A stretch of DNA of 64,000 nt from an uncultured Chloroflexia bacterium (GTDB lineage: Bacteria > Chloroflexota > Dehalococcoidia > GIF9 > UBA5629), in contig CAVWAG010000007.1 of the NCBI GenBank assembly GCA_963752975.1, forward strand, positions 1,793 to 65,792. The letters are read 5' to 3'. A program made the position numbers and the translations under genes. The notes under the pieces were generated by a model. That model did not search any database. It was not told the DNA's origin and worked only from the letters and a program-made list of their open reading frames with translations. Of the stretch, positions 6,940 through 56,140 are shown in pieces. Position 1 is the first letter of the stretch; the number at the start of each line of letters is the position of its first letter.

Positions 6940-8439
6940 ATGGCAATCGATAGAAAAGCAGTATCCGAGTCAGCGTTGGGCACCAAGAAAGAGTACATCA
7001 ACAGGTTGGGCAAGATGCGCCGCAACGTGTATTACGACGGCCACCTGATCGACCGCACCGATGAACTGCAGATGTGCACCATCAACACCATCGGGTCGAC
7101 TTATGACTTCGCCCAGGACCCGAAATTCAAGGACCTGGCGACGGCCAAGAGCCATATCACCGGCAAGACCATCAGCCGGTTCACCCACATCCACCAGAAC
7201 AAGGAAGACCTGCACAAGAAGCAGGACATGACGCGCGCCCTCTGCCGCGAGGTTGGCGGCTGCATACAGCGCTGCATGGGCATCGACGGCTCCAACTCCT
7301 GCAACGCCATCTCCTTCGAAGCCGACAAGCTGAACAAAGGCGCTACCGAGTATCACAAGAATTTCCTGAAATGGCTGGAGAACTTCCAGAATAAGGACCT
7401 GATCGGATGCTGCGCCCAGACGGACGTGAAGGGCGACAGGATGAAGAGGCCCGCCGAGCAGAAGGACCCCGACCTCTACCTCCATGTAGTGGAAAGGAAG
7501 AGCGACGGCATCGTGGTCAGCGGCTGCAAAGTACACAACTCTGAAGCTTCCGTGGCCGACGAGATCGTGGTCGTCCCCACCCGTGCCCTCATGCCCAATG
7601 AGAAAGACTGGGCGGTGGCCTTCGCCGTCCCCGGAGACTGGGAAGGGGTGAAGCAGGTATGCACCATTCATAATTTAAGGGAACGCAAGCATTATAAGAA
7701 GGGATTCATGCAGGGGGCAACCGATTCCTACACCATCTTCGATAAGTGCTTCATACCCTGGGAGAGGGTTTTCCTGTGCGGCGAGCAGCAGCACGGCGCG
7801 GTCGGCGCCCTGCTCTTCGCCCTCTTCCACCGCCACAGCTATTCGGGCTGCAAACCCGCCATCGGCGACGTCATGCTCGGCACCGTCGCCCTGGCTGCTG
7901 AATACAACGGCGTGCACAAGGCCAGCCATATAAGAGAGAAATTGGCTGAACTGATCATGATATCCGAGCTTGGCTATGCGGCAGGTTTCACGGCCTCCGA
8001 ACTGGGCAAACCTGAGGTGTACATGCCCGGCTATGGCTTCATGCCTTACGGCCCCGGCAGCTATATACCCAACTCCATCTACTGCAACGTCGGCCGCTGC
8101 CTGACCGGCGAAGCCGTCTACCGGGAAGCCGAGATACTCTGCGATGTTGCGGGCGGCATCCCGGCCACCTTCCCGCACGAAGGCGATTTCCTCAATCCCG
8201 ACACTGCTGAACTGCTGAAGAAATACACCATGCGCAATCCCGATATCAAGGTCGAGAATGCCATCAAACTGTGGATGCACGTCGGTGATATGATCTGCTC
8301 GGCCACCGGCGGTATCGCCCAGGTCGGCGGCTACCACGGCGGCGGCTCACCCGTTATGGAACAAATCGCTATCACAACCCAGTACGATATCCAGGAAAAG
8401 AAAGAATTGGTCAAACGGATCGCCGGCATTAAAGACTGA
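6940..8439 (+). CDS. abfD: 4-hydroxybutyryl-CoA dehydratase/vinylacetyl-CoA isomerase-like (HpaB-fold family)
   Basis: A 499-aa protein. The CIQRC (Cys-x3-Cys) and FHRHSYSGC motifs match my recollection of the [4Fe-4S] ligand positions of AbfD. A strong RBS (AGGAGG) lies upstream. Confidence 0.78.
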   Translation: MAIDRKAVSESALGTKKEYINRLGKMRRNVYYDGHLIDRTDELQMCTINTIGSTYDFAQDPKFKDLATAKSHITGKTISRFTHIHQNKEDLHKKQDMTRALCREVGGCIQRCMGIDGSNSCNAISFEADKLNKGATEYHKNFLKWLENFQNKDLIGCCAQTDVKGDRMKRPAEQKDPDLYLHVVERKSDGIVVSGCKVHNSEASVADEIVVVPTRALMPNEKDWAVAFAVPGDWEGVKQVCTIHNLRERKHYKKGFMQGATDSYTIFDKCFIPWERVFLCGEQQHGAVGALLFALFHRHSYSGCKPAIGDVMLGTVALAAEYNGVHKASHIREKLAELIMISELGYAAGFTASELGKPEVYMPGYGFMPYGPGSYIPNSIYCNVGRCLTGEAVYREAEILCDVAGGIPATFPHEGDFLNPDTAELLKKYTMRNPDIKVENAIKLWMHVGDMICSATGGIAQVGGYHGGGSPVMEQIAITTQYDIQEKKELVKRIAGIKD

Positions 8440-8449
8440 GTATGTAAAA

Positions 8450-8481
8450 GGCCCCGCCTCACCGGAGGCGGGGCCTTTTTT
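8450..8481 (+). terminator. Rho-independent terminator after the AbfD-like gene
   Basis: Stem GGCCCCGCCTC (8450-8460), loop ACCG, stem GAGGCGGGGCC (8465-8475), then T6 (8476-8481). Confidence 0.85.
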
Positions 8482-8485
8482 ACCT

Positions 8486-8614
8486 GTCATTGCGAGGCCG
8501 CCACAGCGGCCGCGGCAATCCAGTCCTCACGCGTCATTGCGAGGCCGCCACAGCGGCCGCGGCAATCCTTCCACCATGCAAAGATTGCTTCGTCGCCTGC
8601 GGGCTTCTCGCAAT
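8486..8614. repeat. REP-like unit cluster (two direct 36-bp units plus one inverted unit)
   Basis: GTCATTGCGAGGCCGCCACAGCGGCCGCGGCAATCC occurs at 8486-8521 and again at 8533-8568. The inverted unit GATTGCTTCGTCGCCTGCGGGCTTCTCGCAAT lies at 8583-8614 and is interrupted by the IS. Confidence 0.85.
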
Positions 8615-9714
8615 GGGCATATTACTCAAAAAAAGTTGCTAGAAATTTTCATAACGAGTAAATTTTGAGAGTATTTTTTTTAAAATGGAATCGTTTTAGT
8701 GTCAATCATTCAACCGTTTCAATGATTGAGGTAATTAGAATGCATAAAAAAATGCCCCCGGTGTGGATCAGAGGGTATTAAACTCTATGGAACAGACGCA
8801 TTACAAAAGCAGCGATTTCAGTGTTTGCACTGTCATAGGACATTTATCTGGAAAGCGAAGCACAATAGCATTGCACGACGTCAGCATTGGTTTAGATTGT
8901 GGATAAAGGAGAGTTGTTCTGTTAGGTTACTTTGCAAACTCTCAGGTTATAGCACGAACAAACTCAATAGAATAATAAATTACTGGCTAGGACAAATACC
9001 GAAAGAGCGTATTAATTACGAGGAAATCCTTTATGTTATTTATGATGCTACCTACTTTCACAAGGATGGATGCATGCTAAATCTCATGAATGCAACAAAT
9101 CAAAAGATAATTGCACATACCTATGTTCGTAAAGAGAGCTTCAGGGATTCGTATAATTGGTTTATGAACTTGAAGCGCCAGGGATTGGACCCTGTATTTG
9201 TTACAACGGATGGTGAACGATCAATCATACGTGCCATGAAACTCGTTTGGCCGAACGTAAAACTCCAAAGGTGTTTATATCACTTGCAACGTGAAGGAAT
9301 GCGCTGGTTGAGAACATATCCCAAAACCGAGGCAGGTAGAGAATTACGCAACATTATTTCAAAACTCAGCAGGATCAAGACCGTTCAGGAACGAGATACT
9401 TGGGTCAGTATATATGATAACTGGATTAAAAAATACGGGAGTTTTGTCCTGTCTCTGCCTCATACAACCATTGCTTATAAGGATCTTCAACGCACCGTGG
9501 TACTACTAAACAACGCCTTGTCAGATATGTTCCATTACCTTGTCAATAGCAACGTACACGCTACAACCAATGCACTGGAAGGGTTTCATTCGCGGCTTAA
9601 GGCAGACTATCGTCGCCATAGAGGTTTAACAAAGGAACACAGAATTCAATATATTCGTTGGTACTGTTATTACCAAAATGCGTCAAATTAGCAACTTTTT
9701 TGAGTAATATACCC
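8615..9714 (+). mobile_element. IS element copy 1 (about 1.1 kb, single DDE transposase)
   Basis: Terminal inverted repeats of about 27 bp: GGGCATATTACTCAAAAAAAGTTGCTA (8615-8641) and the complement of TAGCAACTTTTTTGAGTAATATACCC (9689-9714). It is flanked by the direct 5-bp repeat GCAAT (8610-8614 and 9715-9719). A second copy is inverted at 10159-11259. Confidence 0.85.
8825..9691 (+). CDS. DDE transposase (IS1/IS1595/ISL3-like features; family unassigned)
   Basis: A 288-aa ORF from TTG. Candidate D-D-E residues are in VIYDATYF, VTTDGERS and TNALEGFHSRLK. The same frame is open upstream to 8735 and encodes a Zn-ribbon (KKCPRCGSEG...QRFQCLHCHRTF) with no in-frame start. The ATG at 8740 is out of frame across an A7 run (8746-8752). 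Confidence 0.8.
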   Translation: MHCHRTFIWKAKHNSIARRQHWFRLWIKESCSVRLLCKLSGYSTNKLNRIINYWLGQIPKERINYEEILYVIYDATYFHKDGCMLNLMNATNQKIIAHTYVRKESFRDSYNWFMNLKRQGLDPVFVTTDGERSIIRAMKLVWPNVKLQRCLYHLQREGMRWLRTYPKTEAGRELRNIISKLSRIKTVQERDTWVSIYDNWIKKYGSFVLSLPHTTIAYKDLQRTVVLLNNALSDMFHYLVNSNVHATTNALEGFHSRLKADYRRHRGLTKEHRIQYIRWYCYYQNASN

Positions 9715-9780
9715 GCAATGACGAGAGGAAAAGGGCCAATACAAAAACGTCATTGCTAGGAGCGCAGCGACGAAGCAATC
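9715..9780. repeat. REP-like units (42-bp hairpin unit plus one core unit)
   Basis: GCAATGACGAGAGGAAAAGGGCCAATACAAAAACGTCATTGC lies at 9715-9756 and repeats directly at 10117-10158 with one mismatch. It is followed by TAGGAGCGCAGCGACGAAGCAATC. Confidence 0.8.
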
Positions 9781-9795
9781 TTGTATAATGCATCT

Positions 9796-10087
9796 ATGGG
9801 CGAAAGACATTTCTATGTGTACGTCATAACCAATTGGAAAAACACGGTGCTTTATACTGGTGTGACTAATGATCTTAAAAGACGCGTTTATGAACACAAA
9901 GAAAAGATTGTTGAGGGTTTCGCCAAACGCTACAATCTGACAAAGCTGGTATATTACGTAGGTTGCGGAAACTGCTGAGGCAGCAATTCTCCGTGAGAAA
10001 CAGCTCAAAGCCGGGGCCAGGCAAAAGAAAGTGGAACTCGTTGAAGGGCTGAATAAAACGTGGTCGGATCTTTATCCTGAATTGTAA
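9796..10087 (+). pseudogene. GIY-YIG nuclease family protein (COG2827-type, about 96 aa), frameshifted
   Basis: MGERHFYVYVITNWKNTVLYTGVTNDLKRRVYEHKEKIVEGFAKRYNLTKLVYY (GIY...YIG motifs) stops at 9978. The +1 frame continues VAETAEAAILREKQLKAGARQKKVELVEGLNKTWSDLYPEL*, which is the conserved C-terminal half. The shift is near 9958-9963. Confidence 0.8.
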
Positions 10088-10089
10088 TA

Positions 10090-10158
10090 GATTGCCACGG
10101 CCGCTGTGGCGGCCTCGCAATGACGAGAGGAAAAGGGTCAATACAAAAACGTCATTGC
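10090..10158. repeat. REP-like units (inverted core unit plus the second copy of the 42-bp hairpin unit)
   Basis: GATTGCCACGGCCGCTGTGGCGGCCTCGCAATGAC is followed by the 42-bp unit at 10117-10158. Confidence 0.8.
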
Positions 10159-11259
10159 GGGTATATTACTCAAAAAAAGTTGCTAATTTGACGCATTTTG
10201 GTAATAACAGTACCAACGAATATATTGAATTCTGTGTTCCTTTGTTAAACCTCTATGGCGACGATAGTCTGCCTTAAGCCGCGAATGAAACCCTTCCAGT
10301 GCATTGGTTGTAGCGTGTACGTTGCTATTGACAAGGTAATGGAACATATCTGACAAGGCGTTGTTTAGTAGTACCACGGTGCGTTGAAGATCCTTATAAG
10401 CAATGGTTGTATGAGGCAGAGACAGGACAAAACTCCCGTATTTTTTAATCCAGTTATCATATATACTGACCCAAGTATCTCGTTCCTGAACGGTCTTGAT
10501 CCTGCTGAGTTTTGAAATAATGTTGCGTAATTCTCTACCTGCCTCGGTTTTGGGATATGTTCTCAACCAGCGCATTCCTTCACGTTGCAAGTGATATAAA
10601 CACCTTTGGAGTTTTACGTTCGGCCAAACGAGTTTCATGGCACGTATGATTGATCGTTCACCATCCGTTGTAACAAATACAGGGTCCAATCCCTGGCGCT
10701 TCAAGTTCATAAACCAATTATACGAATCCCTGAAGCTCTCTTTACGAACATAGGTATGTGCAATTATCTTTTGATTTGTTGCATTCATGAGATTTAGCAT
10801 GCATCCATCCTTGTGAAAGTAGGTAGCATCATAAATAACATAAAGGATTTCCTCGTAATTAATACGCTCTTTCGGTATTTGTCCTAGCCAGTAATTTATT
10901 ATTCTATTGAGTTTGTTCGTGCTATAACCTGAGAGTTTGCAAAGTAACCTAACAGAACAACTCTCCTTTATCCACAATCTAAACCAATGCTGACGTCGTG
11001 CAATGCTATTGTGCTTCGCTTTCCAGATAAATGTCCTATGACAGTGCAAACACTGAAATCGCTGCTTTTGTAATGCGTCTGTTCCATAGAGTTTAATACC
11101 CTCTGATCCACACCGGGGGCATTTTTTTATGCATTCTAATTACCTCAATCATTGAAACGGTTGAATGATTGACACTAAAACGATTCCATTTTAAAAAAAA
11201 TACTCTCAAAATTTACTCGTTATGAAAATTTCTAGCAACTTTTTTTGAGTAATATGCCC
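10159..11259 (-). mobile_element. IS element copy 2 (inverted relative to copy 1)
   Basis: It has the same ends (GGGTATATTACTCAAAAAAAGTTGCTA at 10159-10185; ...GAGTAATATGCCC ending at 11259). It is flanked by the direct 5-bp repeat ATTGC (10154-10158 and 11260-11264). The encoded transposase is identical. It is 1 nt longer than copy 1 (A7/T7 versus T6 in the right-end homopolymer). Confidence 0.85.
10183..11049 (-). CDS. DDE transposase, identical to 8825..9691
   Basis: The 288-aa translation is identical in the ORF track. The same out-of-frame Zn-ribbon leader and T7 (A7 on the coding strand) run are present at about 11122-11128. Confidence 0.8.
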   Translation of the reverse strand: MHCHRTFIWKAKHNSIARRQHWFRLWIKESCSVRLLCKLSGYSTNKLNRIINYWLGQIPKERINYEEILYVIYDATYFHKDGCMLNLMNATNQKIIAHTYVRKESFRDSYNWFMNLKRQGLDPVFVTTDGERSIIRAMKLVWPNVKLQRCLYHLQREGMRWLRTYPKTEAGRELRNIISKLSRIKTVQERDTWVSIYDNWIKKYGSFVLSLPHTTIAYKDLQRTVVLLNNALSDMFHYLVNSNVHATTNALEGFHSRLKADYRRHRGLTKEHRIQYIRWYCYYQNASN

Positions 11260-11333
11260 ATTGCGAGCCGGAAGGGCGCGGCAATCCTTCCACTACCCAA
11301 GGATTGCTTCGTCGCTGCGCTCCTCGCAATGAC
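11260..11333. repeat. REP-like unit cluster
   Basis: ATTGCGAGCCGGAAGGGCGCGGCAATCC is followed by the inverted GATTGCTTCGTCGCTGCGCTCCTCGCAATGAC. ORF 11213..11401 is a repeat translation. Confidence 0.8.
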
Positions 11334-11348
11334 GAAGCGCTGCCTGTC

Positions 11349-12128
11349 TTAAGAAAACTTCCTGATGTCAGCAAAGGCAGCCTTAATGGTTTCCCTGGCA
11401 AAGGGCACTATCCTGCTGTTGCAGTGCACTTCGTCCGCCAGGTAGTACTTCTTGATGAAACCATGCTCATTTGAAGCAATGGACTGCACATCAACGTAGG
11501 GTACATCAATCGATTTGCAGAAGGCCATCAGTCTTTCATTGAATTTCTTCGAGATCTCGCTTCTTTCCCTGGGCTTACCTGAGAACGGCAGGGCCGTGAT
11601 GAATTCCTTGCTGGCCGCCGGCGGTATGCCGTGAACGCACACTGCAAAACCATCCTGCTTGATCCTTTCAATAGCCAACCCGTACCTTTCCACCGTGCGG
11701 TCGATGAGTGTATCGATGCTCACGGTTTTTCCGCTCTTGCCGTACTGCAGATAGATGTGAACACGGGCATCGATCTCTCCAAAAACCAGGAAGACAACAT
11801 CCCTCCTCTTATTTATCTTTGAAAGAAACAATTGGAGGAACTCGGCAGACCGGGTAAAGCTATGTTCCTTAATCAGGTTATAGGCTGTGGCCTGCGAGAT
11901 ATGCTCTACCAGGAAGGGGCATTTATAGATAAATGGCTTGACATGGCTATCGCCGATGACATGGATGATACAGGTATTAAATAAGCGGCCTTTTATCCTC
12001 AGCAGCGTATTGAAAAATACCAGCGGGGGATACTTGAAAACCATGTCCCAAAACGGGAAATAAATGGCGCCGTGCCTTTGCAGCCAGGCAAGCCGTGACA
12101 GCTTATAGTTCTTCCAAAATCCTTGCAT
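11349..12128 (-). CDS. Hypothetical protein, possible SGNH/GDSL-type hydrolase
   Basis: A 259-aa protein. VIGDSHV (block I GDS-like) and ADEVHCN (block V DxxH-like) hint at the SGNH fold. I recognise no other family. Confidence 0.45.
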   Translation of the reverse strand: MQGFWKNYKLSRLAWLQRHGAIYFPFWDMVFKYPPLVFFNTLLRIKGRLFNTCIIHVIGDSHVKPFIYKCPFLVEHISQATAYNLIKEHSFTRSAEFLQLFLSKINKRRDVVFLVFGEIDARVHIYLQYGKSGKTVSIDTLIDRTVERYGLAIERIKQDGFAVCVHGIPPAASKEFITALPFSGKPRERSEISKKFNERLMAFCKSIDVPYVDVQSIASNEHGFIKKYYLADEVHCNSRIVPFARETIKAAFADIRKFS

Positions 12129-37506: not shown

Positions 37507-39959
37507 TTATTTTAATACTATATTTAAGAGCTTGCCGGGCACATAGATAATCTTAGCAATACTTTTACCTGCGACGTAGCCTTTTATGCGTTCCTGTTCA
37601 AAGGCCAGCTTCCTGGCGTCTTCCTCCGTGATATTGACCGGTACGGAGAGCTTATCCCTGAGCTTACCATTGACCTGTATAACCAGGGTGGTTTCTTCAT
37701 CGGCAGCAAGTTCCCGTGTCCCATTTCGGCCAGGACTGATTGTGAATACTATACTTGTAGCCGAGTTGCTGCCATAGCTCTTCAGTCATATGCGGCGCGG
37801 AAGGGGCCAGCAGCAGCAGCAGTGTCCTGGCCGCTTCATCCCACACCGAGCTCCGTACAGACCCGTTCTCCTGTACCCTGCTCAACACATTGCTGTATTC
37901 CATCAAAGCCGCCAGCATAGTATTGAAACGGAAACGTTCCATATCCTCTGTGGCTTTCTTAATCGTTTTGTGCATGATCCTCAGCCATTCTTTCTGCGCA
38001 TCCGCGTCAAGCTGCTTCTCCTGATATTGGACTGATAGCAGGTTCCATACCCTTTTCAACCACCGGCCCATACCGATGATACCGTTATCATTCCACTCGC
38101 CACCCTGCTCCCACGGACCAACAAACATCAGATAAACGCGGACGGCATCGGCGCCGATGTCAGAAACATACTCATCAGGGTTAACCACATTGCCTTTTGA
38201 CTTACTCATCTTTTCACCCTGGCACACAATGATGCCCTGGTTAAACAGGCGCGTAAACGGTTCATCAAATTTTACGATCCCGATATCCCTGATAGCCTTA
38301 ATAAAGAAGCGGGAATAAAGAAGGTGCATCGTGGCATGTTCGGCGCCGCCCGTATAAAGATCTACGGGCATCCAATAATCGAGTTGGTCCCGGTTAAACG
38401 GGTATTTATCAGAAGTCGGACTGGTATACCTCAGGAAATACCAGGAGGAGCACATAAACGTGTCCATGGTATCGGTTTCCCGTTTTGCAGCAGCGCCGCA
38501 TTTCGGGCACCTGGTATTTACAAAGGATTCACAATATTTAAGCGGAGATTCTCCGGTTGGTTTGAATTCAGCATCAGGGGGCAAAAGTACAGGCAGTTCA
38601 TTCTCCGGTACGGGGATAATGCCGCATTTCGCGCAATATACCATGGGAATTGGTGCGCCCCAATACCTCTGACGGGAGATCAGCCAGTCCCGCAACCTGT
38701 ACGTAATAGTCTTGCCCCCCCAACCTTTCTCGGAGAGGAAATCACAGATGGCCGATATCATTTCCCCGTCGGATAAACCGTTAAACTGGGCCGAATTAAC
38801 CATGTGCCCGCCTTCCACGTGGGCCGCTTCCAGGTCCTTCCCGTCCCAGTTATCCGGCGCGACCACTAACCTGATAGGTATGCCATATTTTTTAGCAAAA
38901 TCGAAATCCCTCTGATCGTGAGCGGGGACCCCCATCACAGCGCCCGTCCCGTATTGAGGCAGGACATAATCCGCGATCCAAACAGGTACTTTTTCGCCGT
39001 TTACACGGTTGACAACATAGCTTCCCAGGAATACACCGGTCTTTTCAGTGTCAGCGGCTGTCCTTTCGAATTCTGTCTGCCTCTGTGCGCTGCGGATATA
39101 AGCTTCCACCTCAGCTTTCCTGCCGGGAACGGTCAATCCGGGGACCAGCGGATGCTCCGGCGCAAGTACAAAGAAAGTTACGCCGAATAAAGTATCCGGC
39201 CGCGTTGTGAAAACCCTGATTTCCTTCTCTTCGATACCCGGTTCATCCAGGCCGAAAGAGATATCTGCGCCATAGCTTTTGCCTATCCAGTTGGTCTGCA
39301 TGATCCGGATACGTTCCGGCCAATCGATCTTACTGAAATCAAGCAACTCATCAGCATACTTGGTGATTTTGAAAAACCACTGTTCAAGCCGCTTTTTCTC
39401 CACGGCGGTGTCACAGCGCCAGCAGATACCGTCGCCTACTACCTGCTCATTGGCCAGCACCGTCTGACATTTCGGACACCAGTTGACGGCGGCTTTCCCG
39501 CGATATGCCAGTCCGGCTTCATACAGTTTTAAGAAAAACCACTGTGTCCATTTATAATATTCGGGAAGACAGGTGATGACCTCCCTGTCCCAGTCATATA
39601 TAGCGCCTATGGTTCGCAACTGCCGGCGCATATTTTCGACATTTTGCAATGTCCAGACCGCTGGATTAATGCCGGTGGATATCGCCTTGTTTTCAGCGGG
39701 AAGTCCGAACGCATCGAAGCCCATGGGATGAAGCACATTATAACCCCGCATCATTTTATAGCGGGCATATACATCGGAAGGCGCCATGGCGTACCAGTGC
39801 CCGATATGCAGGTCGCCCGATGTATAAGGAAACATGGTCAAGGCATAAAATTTAGGCCTCGGATCATCTTCTTTAACCTCTGTACAAATGGTCCGCCGCC
39901 CACCTTTCCTGCCATTTCTTCTCGATTTCTTGTGGGTTGTAGTTAATTGCAGCTTTCAT
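37507..39959 (-). pseudogene. leuS: Leucine--tRNA ligase, two 1-nt frame disruptions at the ends
   Basis: The core 714-aa ORF (37697..39841) has HIGH (DLHIGH) and KMSKS. The true N-terminus MKAAINYNPQEIEKKWQERW starts at 39959 and is shifted at CC 39877-39878. The C-terminal tail LAADEETTLVIQVNGKLRDK...IIYVPGKLLNIVLK* is shifted at CCC 37713-37715. Confidence 0.9.
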
Positions 39960-55728: not shown

Positions 55729-55962
55729 CGCAAAAAATAAATTGCCCCAAGTAACCTCAGTTTCCCGGTTCCTCATCCGCCCACTCTGCACTGCTCAGCC
55801 ATCGCCTCACGTGTGCCCGGGTCCTCTGCCTCCCCGTTCCAACTTCGATTACTTGGGACGTTAATAAAATTAGCACATAACCGCATACATGTCAATACCC
55901 TCTTTATAGCTGAAAAAATTTTATTGAAAAATATTTTCCCAGGATAATTACCGGACAAAAAC

Positions 55963-56140
55963 GTCATTGTGCCTCCAACGGCCGTATTGCTGCGGCCGCT
56001 ACGGCGGCCTCGCAATGACGAGGGTAAGGAGAGCCCTCCTCAAAAATGTCTTTGCGAGGAGCCCGCAGGCGACGCGGCAATCCCATGGCAATGCACTATG
56101 CCTTCGATCATGAGATTGCTTCGCTCACTCCCGCGATGGC
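55963..56140. repeat. REP-like unit cluster
   Basis: The cluster begins GTCATTGTGCC... and contains ...GGCCTCGCAATGACG (ending 56020). GTCTTTGCGAGGAGCCCGCAGGCGACGCGGCAATCC lies at 56048-56083. GATTGCTTCGCTCACTCCCGCGATGGC lies at 56114-56140. ORFs 55969..56151 and 56046..56327 are repeat translations. Confidence 0.8.

Follow-up and report, generated by a model that had tools for sequence, protein, structure and literature searches.

A 1.1-kb insertion sequence (IS) has very probably landed twice, and independently, in neighbouring repeat units of a 64,000-nucleotide stretch of DNA from an uncultured Chloroflexia bacterium (GenBank assembly GCA_963752975.1, contig CAVWAG010000007.1, positions 1,793 to 65,792; the whole stretch is called the window below, and all positions are those of the window). 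The units resemble bacterial interspersed mosaic elements (BIMEs). Comparison with related sequences indicates that the element belongs to a clade that targets one site, CTC|GCAAT|GAC, in both orientations, and that its transposase would be made only after recoding close to the start codon.

Two inverted copies of the IS in neighbouring repeat units

The two IS copies lie in opposite orientation on either side of a 444-bp segment (9715-10158; Table 1). When copy 1 was aligned with the reverse complement of copy 2 there was no substitution, and the sole difference was a run of six T (T6, 9696-9701) in copy 1 versus seven (T7) in copy 2, within the right terminal repeat. Because all relatives from short-read assemblies carry T7, the T6 of copy 1 may be a base-calling artefact or a genuine 1-nt deletion. 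The terminal inverted repeats are 26/27 bp long with one mismatch (left GGGCATATTACTCAAAAAAAGTTGCTA, right GGGTATATTACTCAAAAAA(A)GTTGCTA). On its own strand, each IS has junctions of the form CTCGCAAT[IS]GCAATGACG. The similarity between the flanks of the two copies stops past the junction core, 8 bp into the outer flanks and 9 bp into the inner ones. Relatives inserted the other way round have the same termini, so there is no ambiguity in the GGG...CCC ends of the element or in the 5-bp length of its target duplication.

An earlier note on this DNA had described two inverted copies, each with its own 5-bp duplication, and had read them as two independent insertions into restorable repeat cores. 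The sequences match that description at both copies, and the difference in homopolymer length that it reported is truly present. The core obtained by joining the flanks, CTCGCAATGAC, is found uninterrupted elsewhere in the window. The separate duplications, and flanks that are unrelated beyond the 8-9-bp core, bear out the independence of the two insertions.

The insertion site in relatives of the element

We gathered relatives of the element by exact-protein look-up and a metagenome scan; they share 54-90% identity, and redundant flanks were removed. An identical 288-amino-acid (aa) product was encoded on two further contigs (L015 and L016) of one European Nucleotide Archive (ENA) sample, in assembly ERZ25039512. 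The flanks of the L016 copy, CTCGCAAT[IS]GCAATGAC, are oriented as in the window. Those of the L015 copy, GTCATTGC[left end...right end]ATTGCGAGG, place it at the same nucleotide, with the same pentanucleotide duplication, in the opposite orientation. CTC|GCAAT|GAC was the insertion site of nearly all of ~70 non-redundant relatives. A repeat unit interrupted at a fixed position, with flanks that rejoin to a unit, was seen in four of the four identical copies and in ~68 of 72 non-redundant relatives. The site is also used by the 54-55% relatives, one of which (54%) lies in a Candidatus Omnitrophota genome, and likewise by a 62% relative.

Thirty-seven elements were inserted in the orientation of the window (CTCGCAAT[IS]GCAATGAC) and 15 in the opposite orientation (GTCATTGC[IS]ATTGCGAG; binomial P = 0.003 against 50:50), and the 5-bp duplication was exact in 49 of these 52. 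Mixed flanks with no direct repeat were found around 16 elements, every one of them on a contig of 2.3 kb or less, and a handful lay in other contexts (L080 and L081 at CCCGGGAT, L084, and L030). On contigs of at least 4 kb there were 16 elements in the orientation of the window, five in the opposite orientation and none with mixed flanks. Since none occurs on these longer contigs, the mixed-flank elements are best read as likely short-read assembly chimeras formed across a multi-copy repeat.

The flanking sequences thus strongly support site specificity as a feature shared by the whole clade. Orientation shows a bias of ~70:30 without being fixed, which refutes strict orientation specificity. 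The earlier note had proposed that the flanks of further copies be tabulated, and its claim of insertion at a fixed nucleotide of the repeat core now rests on ~70 non-redundant elements, not two. Its claim of orientation-specific insertion fails, the identical L015 copy being reversed at the same site and the clade being split 37:15.

Two 67% relatives, L080 (around 1193) and L081 (692-1751), are flanked by CCCGGGAT and ATCCCGGG and not by the usual core, which suggests a subclade with a different palindromic target. The IS end GGGYATATTACTCAAAAAA was also scanned in 185,579 representative genomes, where it gave 14 loci, all of them chance 19-20-mers without an IS by BLAST.

The repeat family

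CTCGCAATGAC has 13 matches with at most one mismatch in the window, in three intergenic clusters, where 1.07 would be expected from shuffled sequence. Apart from the cluster that holds the IS copies, clusters of the core GATTGC...CTCGCAATGAC lie at 850-1060 and 55960-56130. The units are short imperfect palindromes, extragenic, and clustered in alternating orientation with recurring spacers, as is characteristic of repetitive extragenic palindromes (REPs) and BIMEs. Metagenomes from freshwater, sediment and peat contain the unit in very high numbers. Unlike species-specific REPs, the core occurs in more than one phylum, being common to Chloroflexota-like and Omnitrophota genomes (L105 is a Candidatus Omnitrophota sequence). 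The window was classed as Chloroflexota-like from the names of cluster mates with at least 90% identity. A search of Rfam at a permissive threshold gave weak terminator-like matches only, and none for the repeat or for the IS hairpin described below.

Transposase family

The transposase combines an N-terminal zinc ribbon with a Mutator/IS256-type DDE domain (Table 1). Its catalytic residues D108, D163 and E286 are invariant in an alignment with 13 relatives, and the CPxC...CxxC motif is kept in all relatives. The protein scores above the cut-offs of Pfam Transposase_mut (PF00872; 33.4 bits, cut-off 21) and MULE (32.7 bits, cut-off 27.6), and above those of two models of the four-cysteine N-terminal domain, NF050000 (40.1 bits, cut-off 28) and NF048018 (34.5 bits, cut-off 27). 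The NCBIfam model of IS1249 (NF033544) is matched over its full length at 161 bits, below its curated cut-off of 300 bits. NF048019 (IS256 family, variant Zn-binding type) is also matched over its full length, at 110 bits with a cut-off of 150 that is not reached, and NF033543 (IS256 equivalog) scores 57.6 bits, short of its cut-off of 150. The nearest annotated plasmid-borne relatives are from Emticicia (32% identity) and IS1249 itself (~28%). The terminal repeats, at 26/27 bp, have the length of a few tens of bp that is usual for IS256 elements. By these profile matches, the element is a distant and unnamed branch of the IS256 superfamily that resembles IS1249, and so of another family than IS1397, as had been supposed when it was first noticed.

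Start region of the transposase gene

A conserved GAGG, which forms the ribosome-binding site (8728-8731), is followed after 8 nt by an ATG that leads into a run of seven A (A7). The zinc-ribbon frame starts directly after a TAA and is +1 (or -2) relative to the ATG. Frames in the relatives were called by distance, 14 nt being taken as -1 and 13 nt as +1. The zinc-ribbon frame was open from the ATG that follows GAGG in none of ~88 elements. At least 69 need a -1 shift at ATG CAY AAA AAR/C/T, and 19 need a +1/-2 shift at an A7 or A8 run, A8 being found in two 54-55% relatives. ATG CAY AAA AAA GA TGY is kept in most relatives, and the zinc-ribbon residues stay conserved past the shift site. In one 62% relative (L107) the frame is open only from an upstream ATG that has no obvious ribosome-binding site nearby. 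Distant relatives have been annotated with 'MIEV' as the transposase start; we dropped this candidate, as the alignment shows that the GAGG within it is the ribosome-binding site of the ATG CAT start.

This arrangement looks like obligatory recoding at the A-run. The frame split at A7 is not a long-read artefact, because the short-read assemblies of relatives L018, L019 and L021-L027 carry A7 too. Identical multi-copy elements also carry A7, which implies that this form is active. A -1 ribosomal shift would be the simplest reading for most of the clade, and the A7 and A8 forms would require either slippage of the transcript or a shift of +1/-2. In many database records of this transposase family the protein is exactly 288 aa long and begins inside the zinc ribbon (L/MHCHRTF...). 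The recoded N-terminus is overlooked by gene callers, and the transposase is cut to 288 aa.

No stimulatory structure was predicted downstream of the A-run. A conserved hairpin lies within the IS at 8702-8729, and in three of its pairs 9-12 double compensatory changes were counted among 50 relatives (alignment columns 25-44). It lies ~16 nt before the A-run and is not adjacent to it, unlike the stem loop in Roseiflexus-type transcriptional slippage, which adjoins the run (PMC5009743). Like the A-run sites of IS1 and IS3-family elements (A AAA AAC, A AAA AAG), the present site is an A-run between the start and the catalytic frame, with a -1 shift in most relatives; unlike them, the shift falls at codons 3-4, so that no upstream regulatory protein is made. 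Transcriptional slippage of the IS630 type likewise has an A-run that separates the translation start from the catalytic frame. The need for +1 or -2 in the subclade of the window differs from the frameshift sites of IS1, IS3 and IS630-type elements. As of a 2016 review, +1 ribosomal frameshifting was not known from any IS, whereas access to the +1 frame by transcriptional realignment was documented (PMC5009743).

The inserted block and its neighbourhood

Once the IS copies are taken out, 8486-11334 forms a BIME-like array in which seven units alternate in orientation (Table 1). Its spacers recur, both head-to-head (D1, 98% identity) and tail-to-tail (D2). The small GIY-YIG gene is the only gene in the 444-bp segment between the IS copies and has repeat units on both sides.

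In strains that are ~93-94% identical, represented in four public runs, position 8479 is joined to 11344 with 11 other bases (ACTCTGACCAA) between them, and more distant syntenic loci have a plain terminator-only intergenic spacer. Because both the ~94% strains and the more distant syntenic loci lack it, this sequence comparison shows the 2.9-kb block, with its repeats, GIY-YIG pseudogene and IS copies, to be a recent, lineage-specific accretion between two convergent genes. The earlier note had proposed a search for empty sites in related genomes. The window itself contains intact cores that carry no IS; the related strains lack the whole block, array included. No relative with the array and without the IS copies was found.

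Small GIY-YIG genes recur near repeat units, in the window (9796-10088) and in L042 (1056-1343), L049 (1627-1860) and L105 (3301-3561). The gene lies within ~100 bp of the IS-hit unit in the window, L042 and L049, and ~850 bp downstream of the IS in L105. The GIY-YIG nuclease may be linked to the spread of the repeat; a literature search for GIY-YIG and REP together found no paper with both terms.

Elsewhere in the window, a leucyl-tRNA synthetase frame (37697-39841, minus strand) begins at MTMFPYTSGDLHIGH and appears ~40 residues short at its N-terminus. Taken with the T6/T7 difference and the frameshift in the GIY-YIG gene, it suggests that the assembly may contain indel errors. A search of public runs for reads of the source strain found none with this strain, the best runs having only 23-26% of its words.

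Table 1. Positions of the IS copies, repeat units and neighbouring features in the window.
Feature	Position	Strand	Description
Terminator-like hairpin	8446-8479	+	Inverted repeat after HpaB-like gene (6940-8439)
Repeat units 1 and 2, identical, intact	8486-8521, 8533-8568		GTCATTGCGAGGCCGCCACAGCGGCCGCGGCAATCC; DNA fold -12.8 kcal/mol, z = -3.4
Repeat unit 3, left part	8583-8614		GATTGCTTCGTCGCCTGCGGGCTTCTCGCAAT; split by IS copy 1, remainder 9715-9723; restored unit matches the intact units
Target duplication, IS copy 1	8610-8614, 9715-9719		GCAAT
IS copy 1	8615-9714	+	1100 bp; left terminal repeat 8615-8641, right terminal repeat 9689-9714 with T6
Conserved hairpin inside IS	8702-8729	+	TCAATCATTCAA...TTGAATGATTGA; just upstream of the transposase ribosome-binding site; z = -3.1
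Start codon and slippery run	8740-8752	+	ATG CAT AAAAAAA; zero frame ends after 13 codons
Transposase frame	8753-9691	+	Zinc ribbon CPRC...CLHC, then Mutator/IS256-type DDE domain; stop codon inside right terminal repeat
Catalytic codons	D 9044-9046, D 9209-9211, E 9578-9580	+	D108, D163, E286
Head-to-head spacer, then repeat unit 4 (9748-9780)	9724-9780		AGAGGAAAAGGGCCAATACAAAAA; direct repeat D1, inverted repeat I4
Small GIY-YIG nuclease gene	9796-10088	+	Frameshifted by an apparent extra T near 9950-9960; repaired protein scores 53.7 bits with Pfam GIY-YIG
Repeat unit 5, intact	10090-10125		GATTGCCACGGCCGCTGTGGCGGCCTCGCAATGACG; fold -10.9 kcal/mol, z = -3.0
Repeat unit 6, left part	10150-10158		CGTCATTGC; split by IS copy 2
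Target duplication, IS copy 2	10154-10158, 11260-11264		ATTGC
IS copy 2	10159-11259	-	1101 bp; right terminal repeat 10159-10185 (7 A on + strand), left terminal repeat 11233-11259
Start codon and slippery run, copy 2	11122-11134	-	A7 at 11122-11128
Repeat unit 6, remainder	11260-11285		ATTGCGAGCCGGAAGGGCGCGGCAATCC; first five bases are the second ATTGC copy
Repeat unit 7, intact	11302-11334		Last element of the block before GDSL-like gene (11349-12128, minus strand)

Proposed mechanism and alternative explanations

We propose that the transposase itself would read the 11-bp core as DNA sequence, probably through its zinc-ribbon/helix-turn-helix N-terminus, and would make cuts staggered by 5 bp. 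The transposase is taken as the chooser of the target because the precision to the nucleotide holds across hosts. The orientation bias could arise from the asymmetry of the core, and landing in an extragenic repeat would let the element multiply without gene disruption. Recoding at the A-run at codons 3-4 would throttle transposase synthesis, by a -1 shift in most relatives and by a +1/-2 shift, or by loss of an A from the transcript, in the subclade of the window.

The transposase might instead recognise structure, meeting the repeat as a hairpin or cruciform or as a lagging-strand fold and inserting at the foot of the stem. In CCGCGGCCGC-type units the duplicated GCAAT is indeed one arm of an ATTGC/GCAAT stem base, and these units have fold energies of -11 to -13 kcal/mol (z about -3); the usual restored target is GATTGC-(stem)-CTC|GCAAT|GAC, with GATTGC 25-35 nt upstream in most. 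However, in TTCGTCGC-type units, which include the target of copy 1, the ATTGC/GCAAT stem folds no better than shuffled sequence (z = -1.5 and -1.7), and the symmetric GCAAT of the other arm (GGCAATCC) was never used among the restored targets. The targets of L025, L036, L064 and L066 have no upstream ATTGC arm or have AT-rich stems, and keep CTCGCAATGAC. Because some targets keep the 11-bp core with no partner arm or with an AT-rich or weak stem, we infer that recognition of the core sequence is favoured, and we consider hairpin recognition unlikely. Selection could also mimic targeting, if insertion were random and only copies in harmless extragenic repeats survived. All copies seen are extragenic, and the repeats would be neutral landing sites. 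Survival bias cannot, though, explain why 49 of 52 elements, drawn from many organisms, share a nucleotide position and a 5-bp duplication, and the rest of the 35-nt repeat and other intergenic DNA is never used, which makes this explanation extremely improbable. That the same 8-9 bases border every copy on each side might mean that the repeat halves are part of a longer mobile element and not its target. Those bases are joined and uninterrupted in many units without an IS, each copy has a 5-bp direct repeat, and the sequence past the core differs at every site; the presence of the IS in both orientations relative to the flanking bases refutes the idea, which we give practically no credence.

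The inverted pair could in principle be an assembly artefact (a foldback, a chimeric read or a collapsed duplication) that hides a single insertion. An inverted repeat of 1.1 kb with a 444-bp gap is a shape that long-read artefacts can produce, and the possible indel errors (T6 versus T7, the GIY-YIG frameshift and the N-terminally short leucyl-tRNA synthetase frame) are compatible with a flawed assembly. Yet the sequences outside the copies are different repeat units and not mirror images, diverging after 8 bp (outer) and 9 bp (inner), and the head-to-head spacer D1 is direct, not inverted, at the two sites, which a foldback would not produce. We therefore regard an artefact as very unlikely. 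It is just as hard to see the pair working as a unit, whether as a composite transposon carrying the GIY-YIG segment or as an invertible switch. Two identical inverted copies do bracket the 444-bp segment, and homologous recombination between them would invert it. Such an inversion is plausible. With the same pentanucleotide duplicated at both copies, the flanks would not betray one that had already taken place. But the outer flanks, GCAAT and ATTGC, are reverse complements and form no direct repeat, and each copy has its own duplication instead of a single one at the outer ends of the pair, in agreement with the earlier note's view that this is not a composite transposon. The segment holds a broken GIY-YIG gene and two repeat units and lies between two convergent genes, where inversion has no evident regulatory effect, and an IS-segment-IS pairing was seen at none of the other loci.

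Several observations weigh against the targeting and family assignment that we favour. The 16 mixed-flank elements have no direct repeat, and recombination between copies is an alternative to assembly chimeras. L080 and L081, L084 and L030 sit in other contexts. A common sample is the sole known tie among the four identical copies. The transposase scores under the cut-offs of the curated IS256 and IS1249 equivalog models, and its 5-bp target duplication differs from that of IS256, which is 8-9 bp.

A more far-reaching reading is that these sequences form a cross-phylum mobile system. In this scheme the CTCGCAATGAC repeats would be spread by GIY-YIG genes and not by REP-associated tyrosine transposases (RAYT), and the IS clade would be the dedicated parasite of the repeat. 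Separately, the A7 subclade might reach its transposase frame through a genuine shift of the ribosome, +1 (or -2), at codon 4. We hold this to be doubtful, and rather improbable as a whole. If true, the ribosomal shift in the A7 subclade would be the first such case in an IS.

Discussion

REP-targeting ISs are known in five families, IS256 included, with experimental support for IS1397 and ISKpn1 (both IS3 family) and for IS621 (IS110 family), and the target choice of IS1397 and ISKpn1 has been ascribed to the transposase itself (PMC1525189). Like IS1397 and ISKpn1, the present element inserts specifically into palindromic extragenic units in clusters of alternating orientation. It differs from these enterobacterial elements in repeat family and host phylum, and in having an IS256/IS1249-like transposase with a zinc ribbon in place of an IS3 transposase with two overlapping frames. 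IS1397 enters the loop of the palindromic unit and makes a 3-4 bp duplication, whereas the present element enters at the foot of its unit and duplicates 5 bp.

Near-exclusive insertion into REPs is also shared with the IS110-family elements IS621, ISPpu9, ISPpu10, ISPa11 and ISRm19. All seven copies of ISPpu9, all seven of ISPpu10 and all four of ISRm19 are located in REPs (Tobes and Pareja 2006, PMC1525189). IS110 elements have a DEDD enzyme and usually lack terminal inverted repeats (PMC1525189), unlike the present element with its 26/27-bp terminal repeats, DDE enzyme of the Mutator type and clean 5-bp duplication. Within the same superfamily (Pfam Transposase_mut), ISRm5 of Sinorhizobium meliloti (IS256 family) has a looser, 'type 2' association with REPs, in five of seven copies (PMC1525189), whereas insertion in the present clade is exact to the nucleotide in nearly all of ~70 elements. 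IS1249, from Corynebacterium Tn5432, is the best-scoring named model and has the same order of a four-cysteine zinc ribbon followed by a DDE domain, with a tblastn match over 99% of the query. It is unlike the present element in sequence (~28% identity) and in length, the transposase being ~316 aa here versus 382 model positions. We know of no report of REP targeting by IS1249.

The element is, then, a new example of the established class of REP-targeting ISs and does not represent a novel type of system. What sets it apart from the proven examples is the lineage of its transposase, the family of the repeat, the phyla of its hosts, the length of its duplication and a broad, nucleotide-exact record of insertions. 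With ~70 independent insertions, an 11-bp core and a fixed 5-bp stagger, the reading of a target by a Mutator-type DDE enzyme becomes directly testable. The A-run at codons 3-4 is a compact candidate signal for throttling transposase synthesis. Such elements also break short-read assemblies, as seen in the confinement of every mixed-flank relative to contigs of 2.3 kb or less. In the window, an intergenic region has gained 2.9 kb after ~6% divergence; repeat clusters of this kind grow by accretion, and a core present in more than one phylum serves the IS as a safe landing pad.

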